In this document: in pieces, positions 5,372-52,718 of the stretch
Position numbering within the stretch: position 1 is the stretch's first letter
Layout: every line of letters starts with the position of its first letter
Origin: a virus
DNA length: 64,000 bases
IMG/VR virus record: IMGVR_UViG_3300010430_000007
Location: 1 to 64,000 of that record
Strand: one strand, 5' to 3'
Program-made: the position numbers and the translations under genes
The notes under the pieces: generated by a model
Databases searched by the model: none
What the model saw: the letters and a program-made list of their open reading frames with translations, nothing else
Told to the model about the DNA's origin: nothing

Positions 5372-7084
5372 TTAGTTGTCAATAGTATTTTTATAATCTT
5401 TTAACATAAATTGAATACTTTTTCTTCCTCTAAACTCATTTACATCTAATGTGACAATCATATCGATTCTATTTCCAATTGTCAACTCTTCTGTCATCTC
5501 TGAATTAAACATTATTGCATCAAATTCTTTTACACCTTGTAATACTTTTAGCTTAACATGGTTACTATCTTTTCCAATAGTTCTAGAGTCTAATATTTTC
5601 ATATCATTTATTCTAAACATTGGTCTTGCATTTCCAACTCCATGAGGTTCCAGCCATGCAAGTTCTTTCATTAAGTTAAAATCAATCACATCTTCATCAA
5701 TCACACATTCATATTTAAGCTTTGGTATCATATCTTCTTCTGTCAATACTGAATCTGTATATAGATTAATTTGCTTTCTAAATTCATCTACATTTTCTAA
5801 TTTAATAGCCATTCCACAAGCTTGTTCATGCCCACCAAAACTAGATGTTAATTCTCTAATACTATCAACTGCTTTGTGCAAATCAAACCCATCTATACTA
5901 CGACCTGAACCTTTACACATTCCATCTTCTACATCTAGAAGGATTGTCGGCTTATAGTACTTGTCACAAATCTTTGAAGTAGCAATACCTAATATTCCAG
6001 TATGCCATCCCTCACTAGCGACTATTAGAAATTTATCATCTTCATATGATGGGTCTGATTCTATAATCTCAATAGCTTCTGCGACAATTCTGCGTTCAAT
6101 TTCTTGACGTTCTTCGTTTAGCTCTTTCAACTGCTTACTGATAAATGTAGACTCATTCAAATCATCACTCATTAATAATTCTACTGCCAAATCTGCTTGA
6201 CCTATCCTTCCAGTCGCATTGAGTTGTGGAGCTAATTTAAATCCTATGTCTCCGGATGTGATTTTTTTATCTTGTAACCCAGATTCATTAACTAAACTTC
6301 TTAATCCAATCATGTTGGATTTATTCATATTCTTTAGTCCATGATACGCAATCGTTCTATTCTCATCATAGATTGGGGCGATATCGGCTATGCTTCCGAG
6401 TGAAACTATTTCTAAGAAATCAATGAAGTCATCGTGATCTGGCAAGTCTGGAATTAATGCACAGGCTAGTTTAAATGCAACTCCGACTCCTGCAAGCATG
6501 CCAAATGGATATCCACAATCTTCTTGTTGAGGGTCGATTACAGCAACTGCATCAGGAATCAAACTGGAAGGTAGATGATGGTCTGTCAGAATGACATCTA
6601 TTCCAAGTGACTTTGCATACTCAACTTCTTCAACTCCACTTATTCCACAATCGACAGTAATAATCAATGTTGAGCCAGATTCTTTGATTTTGTCGATAGC
6701 TTTGTTGTTAAGTCCATACCCTTCTTCTAATCTGTTTGGTAAGTAGAAATTTACTGGGTGTTTTAATTTATTAAATGTTTTTAATAGTATAGTAGTGCTG
6801 GTCTCGCCATCGACTCAGACATCGTAGTCGCCATACACGACTACACTTTCTCCTTTCTGAATTGCTTTTTTAATTCTAGCGACTGCACGTTTCATACCTT
6901 TCATTAAATAAGGATTATATAACTTACTTATGTCAGGTCTGAGATATTGTCGAGCATCTTCTTTATTATAAATCTTTCTATTTACTAACGATGTCGCCAT
7001 AGGGAAAGAATGAGTAGTTTCATTCGCCAGTTGAACAATTTTCATCAAGTCATAATCTTTTTGTATCCATGTTTTTTTATTCAT
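5372..7084 (-). CDS. recJ: ssDNA-specific exonuclease RecJ (DHH/DHHA1), one reading frame with an internal TGA at 6815-6817
   Basis: Track ORFs 6815..7138 and 5372..6667 are in the same frame (YGDYDV*VDGETST...RLEEGYGL...ITVDCG...TDHH...LNATGR...GSGRS...GGH). SD GGAGAG precedes ATG 7084. Confidence 0.9.
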
Positions 7085-7580
7085 TATACTCTCCTTTATT
7101 TTTTCTAGCATAATCCCCAAAATATTTCGCTTCGGCATTCAATCTTGCAGATATTGCGTCTTATATTAATTCGTACCTACCTAGATTAATTTTCTTCTTG
7201 TTTACAGTGATATATGATTCCCATTTTTCTCTGTCATTTGCCCATGAAACGCCAGTTGTTCCACTAGTATTATTTTTCTTTTTTTTAAAATTCAATCCAT
7301 TTTGCCTAGGTGTACATATTCTTAAATTTTTATAAGTGTTTATTAAAGTATTTCCGTCGATGTGGTCAACATAAGCCCATCTGTCAGTCACTCCCATTAT
7401 AAATCTGTGAAAATAAAGCTTGTTTCCATCCACACTTGCATATACATAGCCATCAGCATAACACCATTTATGCTTTGAAATTTTTTCCAAGCATTTTACA
7501 TCGCACACGCAATGAATAGGATTCGAATTACTCTCTATTTCTATAAAAAGTTTATCTCCTCGTATACATGTTTTATTCAT
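7077..7580 (-). pseudogene. HNH-AP2 homing-type endonuclease with a premature TAA at 7161-7163
   Basis: YFHRFIM...VDHIDGNTLIN...NLR...NNTSGTTGVSW. The frame continues past the TAA as DAISARLNAEAKYFGDYA, the typical AP2 end, to a stop overlapping the recJ start. Confidence 0.75.
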
Positions 7581-8112
7581 ATAAACTCCCTTTCAGCACC
7601 TCTTTTAAATAGTATTCGAAATAGGTATAAATAAACACTGGCATTGCTTCTGCTGACATATGTTTAAATACAACCCCATACCTATGCTCAAAAGTCTGTA
7701 CCGAACTTATAAACGCCCTTCTACCATATTTAGACCTGTAATTTCCCATAAATAGATTATCCCACTTATCTTCAACACATATTACCATTTTACCTTTGAA
7801 CGTAGCCAATTCTTCTTCAAATCTAGTTCTATGTTTTACCATATTTTGAGACAATTCATCAAGTGAATTCTTTCTTTCTACCACCACTTTTTTATCAAAG
7901 AATAATTTCTCATGTATTCCCAATTCTGGAATAGGTTTCACATAAAAGCTATAATCTCCATTGTCAAGCTTCATTCTTTCGTATTTAACTCTGTTTTTAT
8001 AGTCCATCCATTTCGTTATAGTGTCAGCTTTTTCTCTGGAATCAACTAATATTATCATATTTTTCACAATTAAATCTATTTCTTCTTTTGTAAATTTTCT
8101 ATATTCTAACAT
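7573..8112 (-). CDS. ERCC4-domain nuclease
   Basis: ILVDSREK...GDYSF...VVVERKNSLDEL is the ERCC4/Mus81 signature. Confidence 0.8.
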   Translation of the reverse strand: MLEYRKFTKEEIDLIVKNMIILVDSREKADTITKWMDYKNRVKYERMKLDNGDYSFYVKPIPELGIHEKLFFDKKVVVERKNSLDELSQNMVKHRTRFEEELATFKGKMVICVEDKWDNLFMGNYRSKYGRRAFISSVQTFEHRYGVVFKHMSAEAMPVFIYTYFEYYLKEVLKGSLYE

Positions 8113-42861: not shown

Positions 42862-43416
42862 TTATCGGTCTAGTTTGTTATTTTCGCCATAATACTTCTT
42901 TCTCATTTCTTTTGCATATTCACCAGCTTCCTCTAGCTTATCTAAAGGAAATTTCTTTAAGATAGTATTTTTACCGTTCACTTGAAGCTGAACTTTCCAC
43001 CATTTTCCACCCTTGGACACATTTCTGTATCCCGACTTGTTGTTTGAATTTTTGCCATTTCTATTCATTGCGTTTTTGCTTCTGCTTTTAGGCTCTAAAT
43101 TAAATTTTCTATTATCTAAAGTATTGTGGTCTTTGTGGTCTACGTGAACTTCTCTGCTTTTGGCACCAATTATTAGCCTGTGCATGTACATTGTACTTTT
43201 TCTGTAGGTTCCATCATTATTGTAAATTTTATATATGCATTTTGCATAATAAGATTTTGTGTCAAAATTCCACCCAGCACACCATTTGCTTTGGAAGCTT
43301 AACACTTTATCGAAATCATCATTGTCAATATAGCACTCAAAACAACTTCCATCTTTTCTATCCAAATATATAATTGTATATTCGTCTAGTTTTTTAAATC
43401 TATTTTTGTATTCTAT
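42862..43416 (-). CDS. HNH endonuclease (HNH plus AP2-like domain), probable ATA start
   Basis: YMHRLII...VDHKDHNTLDNRKFNL...NNKSGYRNV. The frame is open upstream to ATA after AGGAGG. Confidence 0.8.
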   Translation of the reverse strand: MEYKNRFKKLDEYTIIYLDRKDGSCFECYIDNDDFDKVLSFQSKWCAGWNFDTKSYYAKCIYKIYNNDGTYRKSTMYMHRLIIGAKSREVHVDHKDHNTLDNRKFNLEPKSRSKNAMNRNGKNSNNKSGYRNVSKGGKWWKVQLQVNGKNTILKKFPLDKLEEAGEYAKEMRKKYYGENNKLDR

Positions 43417-46278
43417 TATTACTCCTCCTTATTCAACTTCAATCTCTCTGATTCTATAATCATGCAAATCATAAATAAAACTCTGTAAATCATAAAATTC
43501 ATCACATAATTTACATTTGTCTTTTTCACATTCCTCTACATGTTCAGCCAAAACATTAAATCTCTCAGTATCATCCTTTATTTTGTGGTTCAAGTCGCCC
43601 AAAATCTTTTTAGCTTCATCTTCATTAAACCTAGCACAATGAATATACTCATGATAATCTTCCCATTCTCCATGAGAGCCCATAATTAAATATACTTTAG
43701 TCATTTAAGTTACCTATATTTACGATAATATCACTCTCGGTTATTTGATATTTATCAAATACCTCTAATTCCCATAATGAACAATACATAGGAAACTCAT
43801 CAATATCTGCTAAATCTCCAATCATACTTTTTCTATCTGAGCAATTAGATAAAATTCCATTTATCATCACTTCTGCATCATAAGTATCTGCTAATCTAAT
43901 CACTACATTTGCCTTGTAAAACTTCTCATTAAAATTATTCATCTTTACTCTCCTTTCACAATCCCATGTTCTTCCAAAGCTTCAATTGTTTTATCAATCC
44001 AAACACCACGTTCTTTACATTCTCTCAATAGTCCACCAATTAAATATGTCATTGCTTTGCCTTTTTCAAAACTCACTGCGTGCGGATAGATATAAGTTGA
44101 ATAACTATTTAAACAATCCATATGAATAATGTTTCTATTTGGAATAACATTCTTATCCATACATTCAAAATAAACACTCTCTCCAACTATTTCTTTTACT
44201 TCTATTTCACACTCTTCAATTTTAAAGTCTTTCATTTTTGCCACATATAATGTATTCATCTCATCCTCCTATACATAAAATAACATTTTCATGTCCTACC
44301 ACTCAATTAAAATGTGTTCTGGAGTGCCATAATCCATAGGTTCCATTGATGTAGCCGGTTCATATGAAAAATACTTGGCATCGAAGTCATAAATGTTTAT
44401 TAGGTCGTGAATAACTTCGTTGACAACTTCTTCCTTTATATCTTCATCCACATAAGTTGGAACATAGAACATTAAATGATTCAAATTATCCGATTCTCTA
44501 AGCTCTCTTTCAATTCCACCTAACATCATTTGTTTTTGTCTTGTAATTAATCCTAATTTTCTATCGTTACTTATTTTAATCATTTCGTCTCTGTTAATCA
44601 TTTTAAACTACTCCTTTCATTCACTATTTTAGAACCTGAATCCCACTAATTTCACTATAACTAAATCCTTTGACTTCTGTACAATGTTCAACCCATTCTT
44701 TACCAATATAATCAAGATAAACAGAGCAATTAATCATAAGTCTATCTCTACCAATTCTAAATACTTTGCCAATATATACACTATTTTCTGTATGGAGACA
44801 TAGCATATCATCCATATAGATATTAGTGTCTGATACCCCATATTTATCAACTAGATGCACGAATTGACCATCTACACTATTTATGTTTAGTATATTTACC
44901 TCCTACCATCACTTGAAACACACGTTTCATCTACCTAACGCTTCCAATTTCTCTTAAATAATAAGTAATTGATACAATCACTGCACTAAATGACATTACT
45001 TGCGGAACTTCATGTGCCCAAATTGAATATAGTAGAGTTAGAATCCATACACACAAGCAAATCCAATCTAAAGCCTTCATAGTTTTTTCATTCATATTAT
45101 TTCCTCCTCAAATTAACCATACACTAATTTATTCTATTTGTCAACCATTATTTCCTGATGAAATGTAGTTTTCATGTGGTTTGATTCATTTTTATTTTGG
45201 CTTCTTTTACAATATTATTCAAATAATCTACACTTGCAATCATCCCGCTTTTCAAGGCTTCATAAATACTATCGCAACTTTCACTGTGTATATATCTACC
45301 ATCTTTTTCAACATACACTGTATAGGTATATTTTGGAATTGCGCCAGACTCAACCTTTTCTGAATTGCCATTTTCAATTTGATTAATTGTCTCATATGTT
45401 ATAATTATACCGAATTCATTAGCAAATTTTTCAATGTCTCTTAATATAATATAAGTGTTTCTAACGTCTTCCATTATGCCTCCTTTTCATCATCAAACTC
45501 ATGTTTACAACCGTCACAGAAAAATCCAGCAACACAGTCAATGTCTTTATTGTATGGACATTTTTCAAGAGGAATTTCTTCTCCCTTATTATTTAAAATT
45601 GTGTGTACTGGATCAATACAGTCAATTATTTTTATACCCATATCTTTAGTGATTTTTAATATATCATCCAATATCATTTTCTTTCTCCCATCTTCTGATA
45701 GCTCGTCTTTCAATTCGTTGTAGTCTAGTGTTTTCTTTCTTGAGTTTCTTATTTTCTTCTTGTAAATGATATTTTTGAACCAACAATGACGAGTGTTTCC
45801 TGCACCAAATTAAAGTTTGTTCTAGCGATTCTGAAAACTCCTCCTCGTATTTTGCTTTTTCATCTTCTGCAATGTTCAAAATGTCTTCTGTAAATATCTT
45901 TAATTGACTCCAAAATAATTCAACTTCTTCATTAAATTCTTCGTTTGCTGTTTCTGATGCATAGTCAAAAATAAAACTATTTCTATCAATCAATTTTTTA
46001 AAACTCTCTGTGGCTTTAATTAGTTTTTTCACAGCTTCTCCTCCTTAATACTTAACAAATTCAATCTACGTGTCCGCTTCACGGCACTACTATATACCAT
46101 TTGAAATGAAGATTTTATTTGGTCTAGTCATTGCTGGTAATTCCCATATACCAATTTAAAAATGCTAATAATAACTGTATTGCGACCCAAATTGCATCTC
46201 CTTTGATTAATGCCGAAAATCCTCCAGCCAAACAAAAACCACTCACAAACATATTAAATCTTCCATAATTAAACATAA

Positions 46279-51538: not shown

Positions 51539-51566
51539 TAAAAAAGAGCCCTAATATAAGGACTCT
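51539..51566 (-). terminator. Intrinsic terminator
   Basis: AGAGTCCT-loop-AGGGCTCT plus a T-run. Confidence 0.75.
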
Positions 51567-51983
51567 AGTTTCAAATTTTTTAACTGTTTTATTCTGCCTG
51601 TTGATTCAATATCATAGCACTCTTCGCACAACTCTAATTTTGCTCTTGCAACATAACTAACTTTATCTTTCAAATCTTTTTGCCTCAATCGTCTTCCGCA
51701 TCTATCACAACTTGATATTGAGTTAGATTCTACTCATTTGGTATCGACTTCTTTTTCTTGCCAATCATATTGCCCCAACGTCTTAAAAACTTTTATATGC
51801 CCTATCTCATCACACCCAGAAAACTGTGACCTAAACCTAGAGTGTTCAAACCATATAGTGTAATCACTGTCTTTTGAGCACAATTTTCGTGGTTGATTGT
51901 CTATCATCCAATTAATACATTCTTTAACACCTGTCATATTTTATCTCCTTTAATTAAAACCCAATGAAATTGGCATTTTATCA

Positions 51984-52718
51984 TTACTTGTTTAACTCCA
52001 TAATTACCTTTGCACCGTGCTTTTCTATAAAAGTGAATGTATATCCATTTATCGGACTTTTTCTTTTTCCGCTTAAATACATGCTTATATCAGGTGCTCT
52101 TATATTTAAGGCTTTTCCAGCTTTACATTGCGAATCAAATATCTCACCGGTTTCATTGCATAGAATTCTTTGTTTTCTCGTACTTATAAATTTGAAGTTC
52201 GGGTCATCGAATTTTGTTCTAATCCAATCCTCTTTTACCTCATCATAATATCTAACCTTTACACCATTCGAGTCGCATGCTTTACCTCTACAAGAGTACG
52301 CTATACTTCTATGGTCTATTCCCATCTTTACAGCCAATGCCTTTCCCGTTGGGTATATCTTAATTACTTTGTCATCTTCTACAATACAACATTGTTTACT
52401 CTTAGGGTATAATCCATTATTTCTTACGTGCGTCATGTTTTCTAGAGGGGTACACCATTCAAGATTGTCCACCCTATTATTTGACTTGTTTGCATCCTTA
52501 TGATTCACCTGTGGTTTATTTTCTGGATTCGGTATGAACACAGTGGCTATTATTCTATGCCTTCCATGTATGACACCATATCCCATACCTAAGTCTATCG
52601 ATGTTTTTACATATCCATCTTTATCTGGTTTATTTGACAAAGGTTTTCCTTTCTTGCCAATTACAGTGCCATAATTAGATATTTTATACCCATTGATTTC
52701 CTTCCATATTTCTTTGAT
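51984..52718 (-). CDS. NUMOD4-HNH-NUMOD1 homing endonuclease, probable ATC start
   Basis: [15 protein letters not shown] (NUMOD4), [37 protein letters not shown] (HNH), C-terminal NUMOD1-like repeats. Confidence 0.85.

Follow-up and report, generated by a model that had tools for sequence, protein, structure and literature searches.

A stop codon between identical valine codons in the catalytic motif of a phage recJ gene: a candidate minimal translational bypass element

The recJ gene considered here belongs to a marine-sediment phage whose genome (IMG/VR record IMGVR_UViG_3300010430_000007) comprises 133,911 bp, has terminal repeats and a G+C content of 31.9%; its first 64 kb (64,000 nucleotides, nt) are the stretch of DNA that was analysed, hereafter "the window". 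On the minus strand, the gene reads TAT GGC GAC TAC GAT GTC TGA GTC GAT GGC, i.e., YGDYDV, then TGA, then VDG. Thus, an in-frame TGA stop codon (6815..6817) lies between two GTC (valine) codons at 6818..6820 and 6812..6814, as an initial annotation of this DNA had claimed. The first open reading frame (ORF1; 6818..7138, minus strand) encodes the N-terminal part of RecJ: it has 107 codons counted from the ATG at 7138, ends in ...VVVYGDYDV and matches phrog_2484 (RecJ-like, E 2e-9), and gene callers choose the ATG at 7084, which gives 89 amino acids (aa). The frame after the TGA is that of ORF1 and is open for 480 codons, i.e., the second GTC followed by ORF2 (5372..6811, minus strand), which has 479 codons and TAA. 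ORF2 encodes the C-terminal part, with DHH motifs II–IV, DHHA1 and the RecJ OB fold (Pfam DHH 8.9e-21, DHHA1 2.2e-15, RecJ_OB 1.9e-27), aligns to the RecJ structures 8y30, 5f54 and 2zxo, and has no further lesion; its earliest canonical start lies at 6667, 48 codons past the stop and beyond motif I. The description of two in-frame, intact halves therefore stands. Together they hold the DHH, DHHA1 and OB domains and motifs I–IV that define RecJ, a 5′-3′ single-stranded DNA exonuclease of the DHH family, with motif I whole only if six nucleotides are skipped. No other stop codon in the 133,911-bp genome lies between identical codons with a long open frame to either side. GTC is an unusual codon in this phage, as had been remarked: it is the rarest valine codon of the genome (7.2%), and for the rarity and G+C content of its codons the 17-codon stretch surrounding the stop ranks within the top 0.08% of the genome.

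The Asp on the 3′ side of the gap, encoded by GAT at 6811-6809, aligns with residue 83 of Deinococcus radiodurans RecJ (DrRecJ; 5f54) and residue 84 of Thermus thermophilus RecJ (2zxo), and the counterpart of DrRecJ Asp81 is the Asp two residues earlier, so that the first GTC occupies position x82 of the motif D79-x-D81-x-D83-G. In DrRecJ, Asp79 and Asp81 are ligands of metal B and Asp83 is a ligand of metal A, and alanine substitution of these ligands nearly abolishes activity (PMC4846377). Since the six bases split two metal ligands, reading through the stop would set the ligands two residues apart, and skipping exactly six nucleotides restores YGDYDVDG, as the initial annotation had stated. 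The restored motif is the consensus of uncut genes: no interruption of it occurs in any of 80 mostly bacterial recJ loci or of 85 non-redundant phage recJ loci from IMG/VR. When one genome from each of 185,579 prokaryote species was scanned by pattern, the motif was nowhere interrupted by 1–12 nt, and the pattern TATGGNGAYTAYGAY-gap-GTNGAYGG returned only chance matches or normal recJ genes, both in IMG/VR and in those species genomes.

The insert is genuine and did not come from an error of assembly. Over 9484 bp that include the recJ site, an ENA contig agrees with the window at 100% identity; a JGI contig has two mismatches in 2274 bp, one synonymous and one Pro-to-Ser, both within ORF2; and Logan contigs from three marine-sediment runs cross positions 6804-6850 without a difference. 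The initial annotation had wanted this point confirmed, and it is upheld at the level of contigs with a depth of 3.5-5x, data that a minority allele lacking the insert could escape. The searched sequencing runs listed no RNA run that contains the recJ stretch. An origin of the insert by template switching at a quasi-palindrome was considered and rejected on inspection of the sequence, as the inserted bases do not lengthen the hairpin that precedes them.

In this phage, TGA serves as a stop codon, because 13 of the 176 long ORFs end in TGA (112 end in TAA and 51 in TAG), no in-frame TGA occurs inside its genes of 1080, 800 and 467 codons, and the genome has no suppressor tRNA. Its sole tRNA is an isoleucine tRNA with the anticodon TAT (C1:109832-109908, beyond the window). 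Nothing thus points to reassignment of the stop codon, whether as in genetic codes 4 or 25 or by suppressor-tRNA recoding. Selenocysteine would call for a selenocysteine insertion sequence (SECIS) immediately after the UGA; a search of the recJ region against Rfam gave no match to a SECIS, an intron, a frameshift element or any other family, and the 3′ side of the stop has no unusual structure. A basic stretch, RIKKAIQK, lies 14-21 residues before the first GTC; it is not diagnostic as a nascent-peptide signal, because comparable residues occur in uncut RecJ.

Four further phage recJ genes are cut inside the same five codons. The nearest relative, L002, is a 3.5-kb Logan contig that shares synteny with the window and encodes a RecJ 52% identical to that of the window; the other three (L019, L221 and L269) were obtained by sampling IMG/VR with RecJ profiles. 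L002 reads TAT GAC T GAC GTG, a 4-nt insert by which TGA directly follows GAC and a second GAC stands 4 nt on. L019 reads GAT CCG TAA TCA GAT GGA (+6, CCG-TAA-TCA; L019:2488-2505), L221 reads GAC CCG TAG TCA GAT CCT GAT GGT (+6, CCG-TAG-TCA; L221:1483-1506), and L269 reads GAT TAGTTAG GAT TAT GAC GGC (+10). All four have a stop right after the codon from which a ribosome would take off, and both halves of each gene are intact; with the window, none of the five cut genes has a second lesion in the 450-480 downstream codons. Skips of 4, 6, 6 and 10 nt, respectively, restore D-x-D-x-D-G, with a landing codon that matches the take-off codon (GAC, GAT) or nearly does so. The near match is that of L019 and L221, where a tRNA with the anticodon UGG could move from CCG to TCA and pair there with one G-U pair. 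The RecJ proteins of L221 and L019 are only 43.5% identical, yet both genes contain the cassette CCG-stop-TCA-GAT, one D-P unit apart, which means that the cassette either shifted by one repeat unit within D-P-D-P-D-G or was gained twice.

Other searches for relatives returned little. There was no megablast match to the window phage among 50,697 phage records, and patterns from RecJ or ERCC4 found no relative in IMG/VR. A metagenome scan with generic patterns found only RecJ genes of 46% identity or less, which in all likelihood come from bacteria and served as controls. A search of short proteins with the N fragment matched the phage itself only, and an exhaustive N-fragment search found chiefly truncated or frame-shifted pieces of ordinary recJ; three of its matches break right after DYDV or DYDI, one through insertion of a mobile element and two on 1-kb contigs. 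Bacillus phages FADO and 2S-4 and record MT839274, which had been suspected from their annotation or from the number of recJ pieces, are intact at motif I. The recJ gene of MT839274, a fecal phage, shifts frame near alignment residues 267-318 (L038:3030-3040), possibly through an assembly error. In a 9.5-kb metagenome contig, a phage recJ gene reads GAG GAT TGA TGC AGA TGG (L285:1480-1510) where its relatives have D-I-D-A-D-G; the change is a loss of 2 nt or a gain of 1 nt giving GAT-T-GAT, and is probably a plain frameshift or a sequencing error. One protein of 1848 aa (P0206) consists of three tandem RecJ-like units, of which the first and third have degenerate catalytic motifs.

The initial annotation had reported a perfect 7-bp hairpin just 5′ of the interruption. 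Its arms, GTAGTCG (6844-6838) and CGACTAC (6830-6824), are present, and two G-U pairs extend it to 9 bp, so that the stem-loop (6823..6845, minus strand; seven Watson-Crick and two G-U pairs, 5-nt loop) ends 2 nt 5′ of the first GTC. The competing stem CGACT/AGTCG that had also been described does exist, but nothing special was found about it. For each cut gene, the 42 nt before the take-off codon were compared with the homologous 42 nt of uncut recJ genes (100 mixed controls and 85 phage controls), and the protein sequence was held fixed while codons were redrawn from each genome's own usage. In the window, this segment has a minimum free energy of -12.2 kcal/mol; one of the 100 mixed controls and none of the 85 phage controls is as low in z-score, and none of 2000 synonymous resamplings reaches it (p < 0.0005). 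Its z-score against shuffled sequences ranges from -3.2 to -4.8; in stability it beats 99-100 of the 100 mixed and 84-85 of the 85 phage segments, and the result is stable for segments of 30 to 60 nt.

The same holds for the other cut genes, with L002 as the weakest. The energies and resampling p values are -14.8 kcal/mol and 0.007 for L019 (no control as low, 0/100 mixed and 0/85 phage), -15.4 and 0.0015 for L221 (0/85 phage) and -12.3 and 0.0095 for L269 (0/85 phage), whereas L002 has -7.0 and 0.0375, with 7/100 mixed controls as low (1-3 for segments of 30-48 nt) and, among the phage controls, five by z-score and three by energy. Thus, four cut genes outdo all 85 phage controls in both energy and z-score at 42 nt and L002 ranks 3-5 of 85; Fisher's combination of the five p values, calculated by hand, is about 5e-8. 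In each of the five cut genes, the hairpin is separated by 0-9 nt from the take-off codon that follows it, and no upstream hairpin precedes the plain 1-2-nt frameshift of L285. The stem of the window is made of the rare codons GTC, GGC, GAC and TAC. The resampling shows that codon choice builds the hairpins. Among the points raised in the initial annotation, the hairpin is the key signal, and it is predicted to stimulate bypassing.

Upstream of recJ, the gene order is DnaB, a 336-aa protein, Pol III alpha, ERCC4, HNH and recJ. An HNH gene had been placed directly upstream, and it is there: it occupies 7161..7580 (minus strand), between ERCC4 and recJ, and encodes a protein of 139 aa with HNH_3 and AP2-like domains (phrog_99, E 4.8e-29; Pfam HNH_3, E 4.7e-5, at 23.4 bits just under the cut-off of 24.8). 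Its homologues of 150-170 aa carry AP2, and from its length the window copy would be without the end of this domain. The ERCC4-type nuclease gene (7573..8112, minus strand; Pfam ERCC4 1.4e-8) is conserved in this phage clade as the gene preceding recJ and is 63% identical to its counterpart in L002, where ERCC4 abuts recJ. The domain, together with its presence in the window and its absence from this junction in L002, identifies the gene as a free-standing HNH homing endonuclease. The initial annotation had proposed to check whether related phages carry the same six bases along with the HNH gene: in L002, the motif is cut by a different insert, and no HNH gene is present at this junction. The homologues of the HNH protein are dispersed in unrelated phage contexts and give no link to recJ. 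The phage itself carries at least three HNH-type endonuclease genes, two more of which lie in the window, at 42862-43428 and 51984-52640 (both minus strand), and are 36% identical over parts to the one beside recJ. Just downstream of the latter, at 51551-51940 (minus strand), a 67-aa ORF ends in TGA (AAA TGA GTA, 51736-51734) and its frame stays open for 60 more codons; this extension encodes CxxC...CxxC, the flanking codons are unmatched, and the arrangement could be two small genes or another recoding site.

The association between endonucleases and cut recJ genes is real but modest. In L269, the ORF directly upstream of recJ encodes an endonuclease of a different family, the LAGLIDADG type (phrog_4645, E 1e-42; PF14528 above its cut-off), and the upstream neighbours of 83 non-redundant uncut phage recJ genes include one HNH and no LAGLIDADG or GIY-YIG endonuclease. 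An endonuclease is therefore directly upstream in two of five cut genes as against one of 83 uncut ones (Fisher's exact test, by hand, about 0.008); leaving out the window, which was ascertained partly for its HNH gene, the value is 0.09. Another kind of mobile element is found in bacteria: a chromosomal recJ gene is cut right after ...YGDYDI by an element encoding three consecutive tyrosine-recombinase-like proteins of 452, 774 and 604 aa (L173:4001-8327, also L174 and L175), seen on 19 contigs. The same motif is thus the target of a different mobile element.

Taken together, these features suggest that the six bases are a minimal translational bypass element, or stop-hop, which would yield full-length RecJ, and we consider this the probable reading. 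The ribosome would decode GUC (valine) in its P site and meet UGA in the A site, where release would compete with dissociation of the peptidyl-tRNA-Val from the first GUC. At take-off, the 3′ arm of the hairpin would still be within the ribosome, and completion of the stem at the mRNA exit could draw the mRNA forward. The mRNA would slide by 6 nt, the anticodon would re-pair with the second GUC, and decoding would resume at GAU. The resulting RecJ would have the canonical YGDYDVDG, with an Asp on either side of the gap as ligands of the two catalytic metals. The product would have the junction ...YGDYDVDGETS..., for which GESVVVYGDYDVDGETSTTILLK is the expected tryptic peptide. Most likely, the allele with the insert would have arisen or spread as one that no longer offers the neighbouring HNH endonuclease an intact target while RecJ can still be expressed. 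The comparative support is strong, with four more cut genes, codons that allow re-pairing and exceptional hairpins; the hop itself, whatever its efficiency, the part played by the hairpin and the protection against the endonuclease are what we infer.

To our knowledge, natural bypassing in bacteria and phages is known essentially from T4 gene 60 and its homologues. In +1 frameshifting of the prfB type, the P-site tRNA realigns in response to a UGA that is slowly decoded in the A site, a situation that resembles GAC-UGA-C in L002; the prfB tRNA moves by a single base to a codon overlapping the first, stimulated by a Shine-Dalgarno sequence 3 nt upstream, whereas in the window the move would be of six bases onto a non-overlapping codon, with the frame kept. 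O'Connor et al. are said to have described in 1989 the case of tRNA-Val on GUG UAA GUU. In E. coli, synthetic stop-hops work with matched codons around a stop (Weiss, Dunn, Atkins and Gesteland 1987, as reviewed in PMC5009743), and as that review presents them they share with the recJ site the matched codons flanking a stop, the decoding of nine nucleotides as one residue, re-pairing 6 nt on and a slow A-site codon. They are engineered, of low yield and free of a dedicated stimulator, whereas the recJ site is natural, lies in a catalytic motif and stands behind a selected hairpin. Of natural in-frame stop-hopping, Atkins and colleagues wrote in their 2016 review that "no occurrences are known" (PMC5009743), and full-text literature searches found no paper linking bypassing with recJ.

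The closest known system is T4 gene 60 with its endonuclease MobA (Huang 1988; Bonocora 2011; Manning and Atkins, 10.1101/2022.08.31.505936). In both cases, the interrupted gene has an endonuclease gene directly upstream and carries its insert where the coding sequence is highly conserved. The take-off codon is followed by a stop and matches the landing codon, ORF1 contains a 5′ stem-loop, and the insert is proposed to block the endonuclease. The gap of gene 60 protects against MobA (10.1101/2022.08.31.505936), and its 5′ stem-loop aids bypassing, with the stem-loop and pairing on the exit side proposed to act there (PMC11194080; 10.1101/2024.12.09.627546). The differences are that the recJ gap has 6 nt instead of 50 and no sequence relation to that of gene 60, that the host gene is recJ and not a topoisomerase gene, that the endonuclease is HNH-AP2 and not MobA, that the recJ element is known here without a demonstrated take-off stem-loop or nascent-peptide signal, and that recJ is not split by an endonuclease gene. 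Judged by sequence, the recJ element is thus best described as an analogue and not a member of the gene 60/MobA cassette family. The byp elements in the mitochondria of Magnusiomyces capitatus (Lang et al. 2014, as described in PMC5009743) are likewise short coding inserts that are skipped with restoration of the protein; in that description they are of 27-55 nt, number 81 per genome, are mitochondrial and have an unassigned A-site codon, whereas recJ has one site per phage genome and a standard stop.

Several points weigh against bypassing. RecJ may be dispensable to the phage, so that a selfish element could carry a null allele, and synthetic stop-hops are reportedly inefficient, at about 1%. 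The hairpin had already been noticed when its tests were designed, and the segment lengths were chosen by the authors. In L019 and L221, the landing codon TCA differs from the take-off codon CCG, so that a G-U pair is required at the first position; in L002, the 4-nt insert is a perfect tandem duplication, by which matched codons come free, and the C fragment could begin at an ATG 14 nt before the stop (MEIMTDVDG...). Three of the five cut genes (L002, L019 and L221) have no endonuclease within 1.5-2.5 kb of recJ; "hit and run" histories, as described for MobA (10.1101/2022.08.31.505936), would fit these three. Finally, all copies of the phage are at least 99.9% identical, which leaves no time depth for the allele, and the one synonymous and one non-synonymous difference between copies say nothing either way.

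Among the other explanations, a recent pseudogene is the most serious, although we regard it as unlikely. The six bases would then be a repair scar, or an endonuclease immunity allele introduced by co-conversion, which kills a recJ gene that has not yet decayed. This would agree with the in-frame stop, the lack of a downstream start before codon 48 of ORF2, the adjacent HNH gene, near-identical samples without time depth, and the recombinase element, which makes the DNA of the motif a target of other mobile elements as well. The ratio of non-synonymous to synonymous substitution rates (dN/dS) against L002, a measure that the initial annotation had proposed for the 3′ half, is about 0.17-0.21 in both halves of recJ; it is uninformative on the period after the insertion, because dS is saturated and time before the insertion is included, and is to that extent compatible with a dead gene. 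A pseudogene leaves unexplained why an exceptional hairpin built by codon choice precedes the stop in five of five cut genes, why each insert opens with a stop and closes with a codon that allows re-pairing, why none of the five has a second lesion downstream, and why L019 and L221 have a cassette in common at so low an identity. The fallback offered in the initial annotation, a scar that inactivates recJ, is thereby weakened.

The remaining alternatives keep the gene alive by other means, or deny the insert. If UGA were read as an amino acid, by near-cognate readthrough, as selenocysteine or under a reassigned code, RecJ would have an extra V-X between its ligands; in the window, L019 and L221 the insert keeps the frame, and UGA is the leakiest of the stop codons. 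We nevertheless hold this improbable: TGA ends 13 genes and is absent from inside the large ones, the phage lacks a suppressor tRNA, neither a SECIS nor any other Rfam family matches, no structure lies on the 3′ side, extra residues at this place occur in none of about 165 uncut recJ genes, such residues would fall at different places in L221 and L019, and the relatives with +4 and +10 would not be rescued. Still less probable is that RecJ assembles from two polypeptides, an N fragment ending at the stop and a reinitiated C fragment, for which the upstream ATG in L002 is the one available start: the window, L019 and L221 have no in-frame ATG, GTG or TTG until well past motif I, and a C fragment started so late would be without Asp83. 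Only a hop repairs all the gap lengths, because readthrough fails at +4 and +10 and L002 alone offers the C fragment a start of its own. An artefact of sequencing or assembly would be in keeping with a metagenome assembly and with the depth of 3.5-5x in the sequencing runs, and is scarcely credible given the identical six bases in the IMG/VR, ENA and JGI assemblies and in the Logan contigs of three runs.

Returning to bypassing as the favoured reading, we see a somewhat better than even chance that micro-bypass elements recur as a class in phage recJ genes, each comprising a gap of 4-10 nt led by a stop, a landing codon that allows re-pairing and an exit hairpin that would drive the hop, and that these arise repeatedly in the metal-binding motif as alleles immune to endonucleases of different families. 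GTC-TGA-GTC would be the minimal form and would be among the first natural stop-hops. If this is true, a stop, a matched codon and a hairpin on the exit side would suffice for efficient hopping, and the site would offer a small, portable test bed for the idea that mRNA refolding behind the ribosome drives a forward slide. Genes that seem "broken" by short, stop-bearing inserts in conserved motifs should then not automatically be annotated as pseudogenes. Endonucleases and their targets would also have reached the same solution at least twice, in gene 60 and in recJ.

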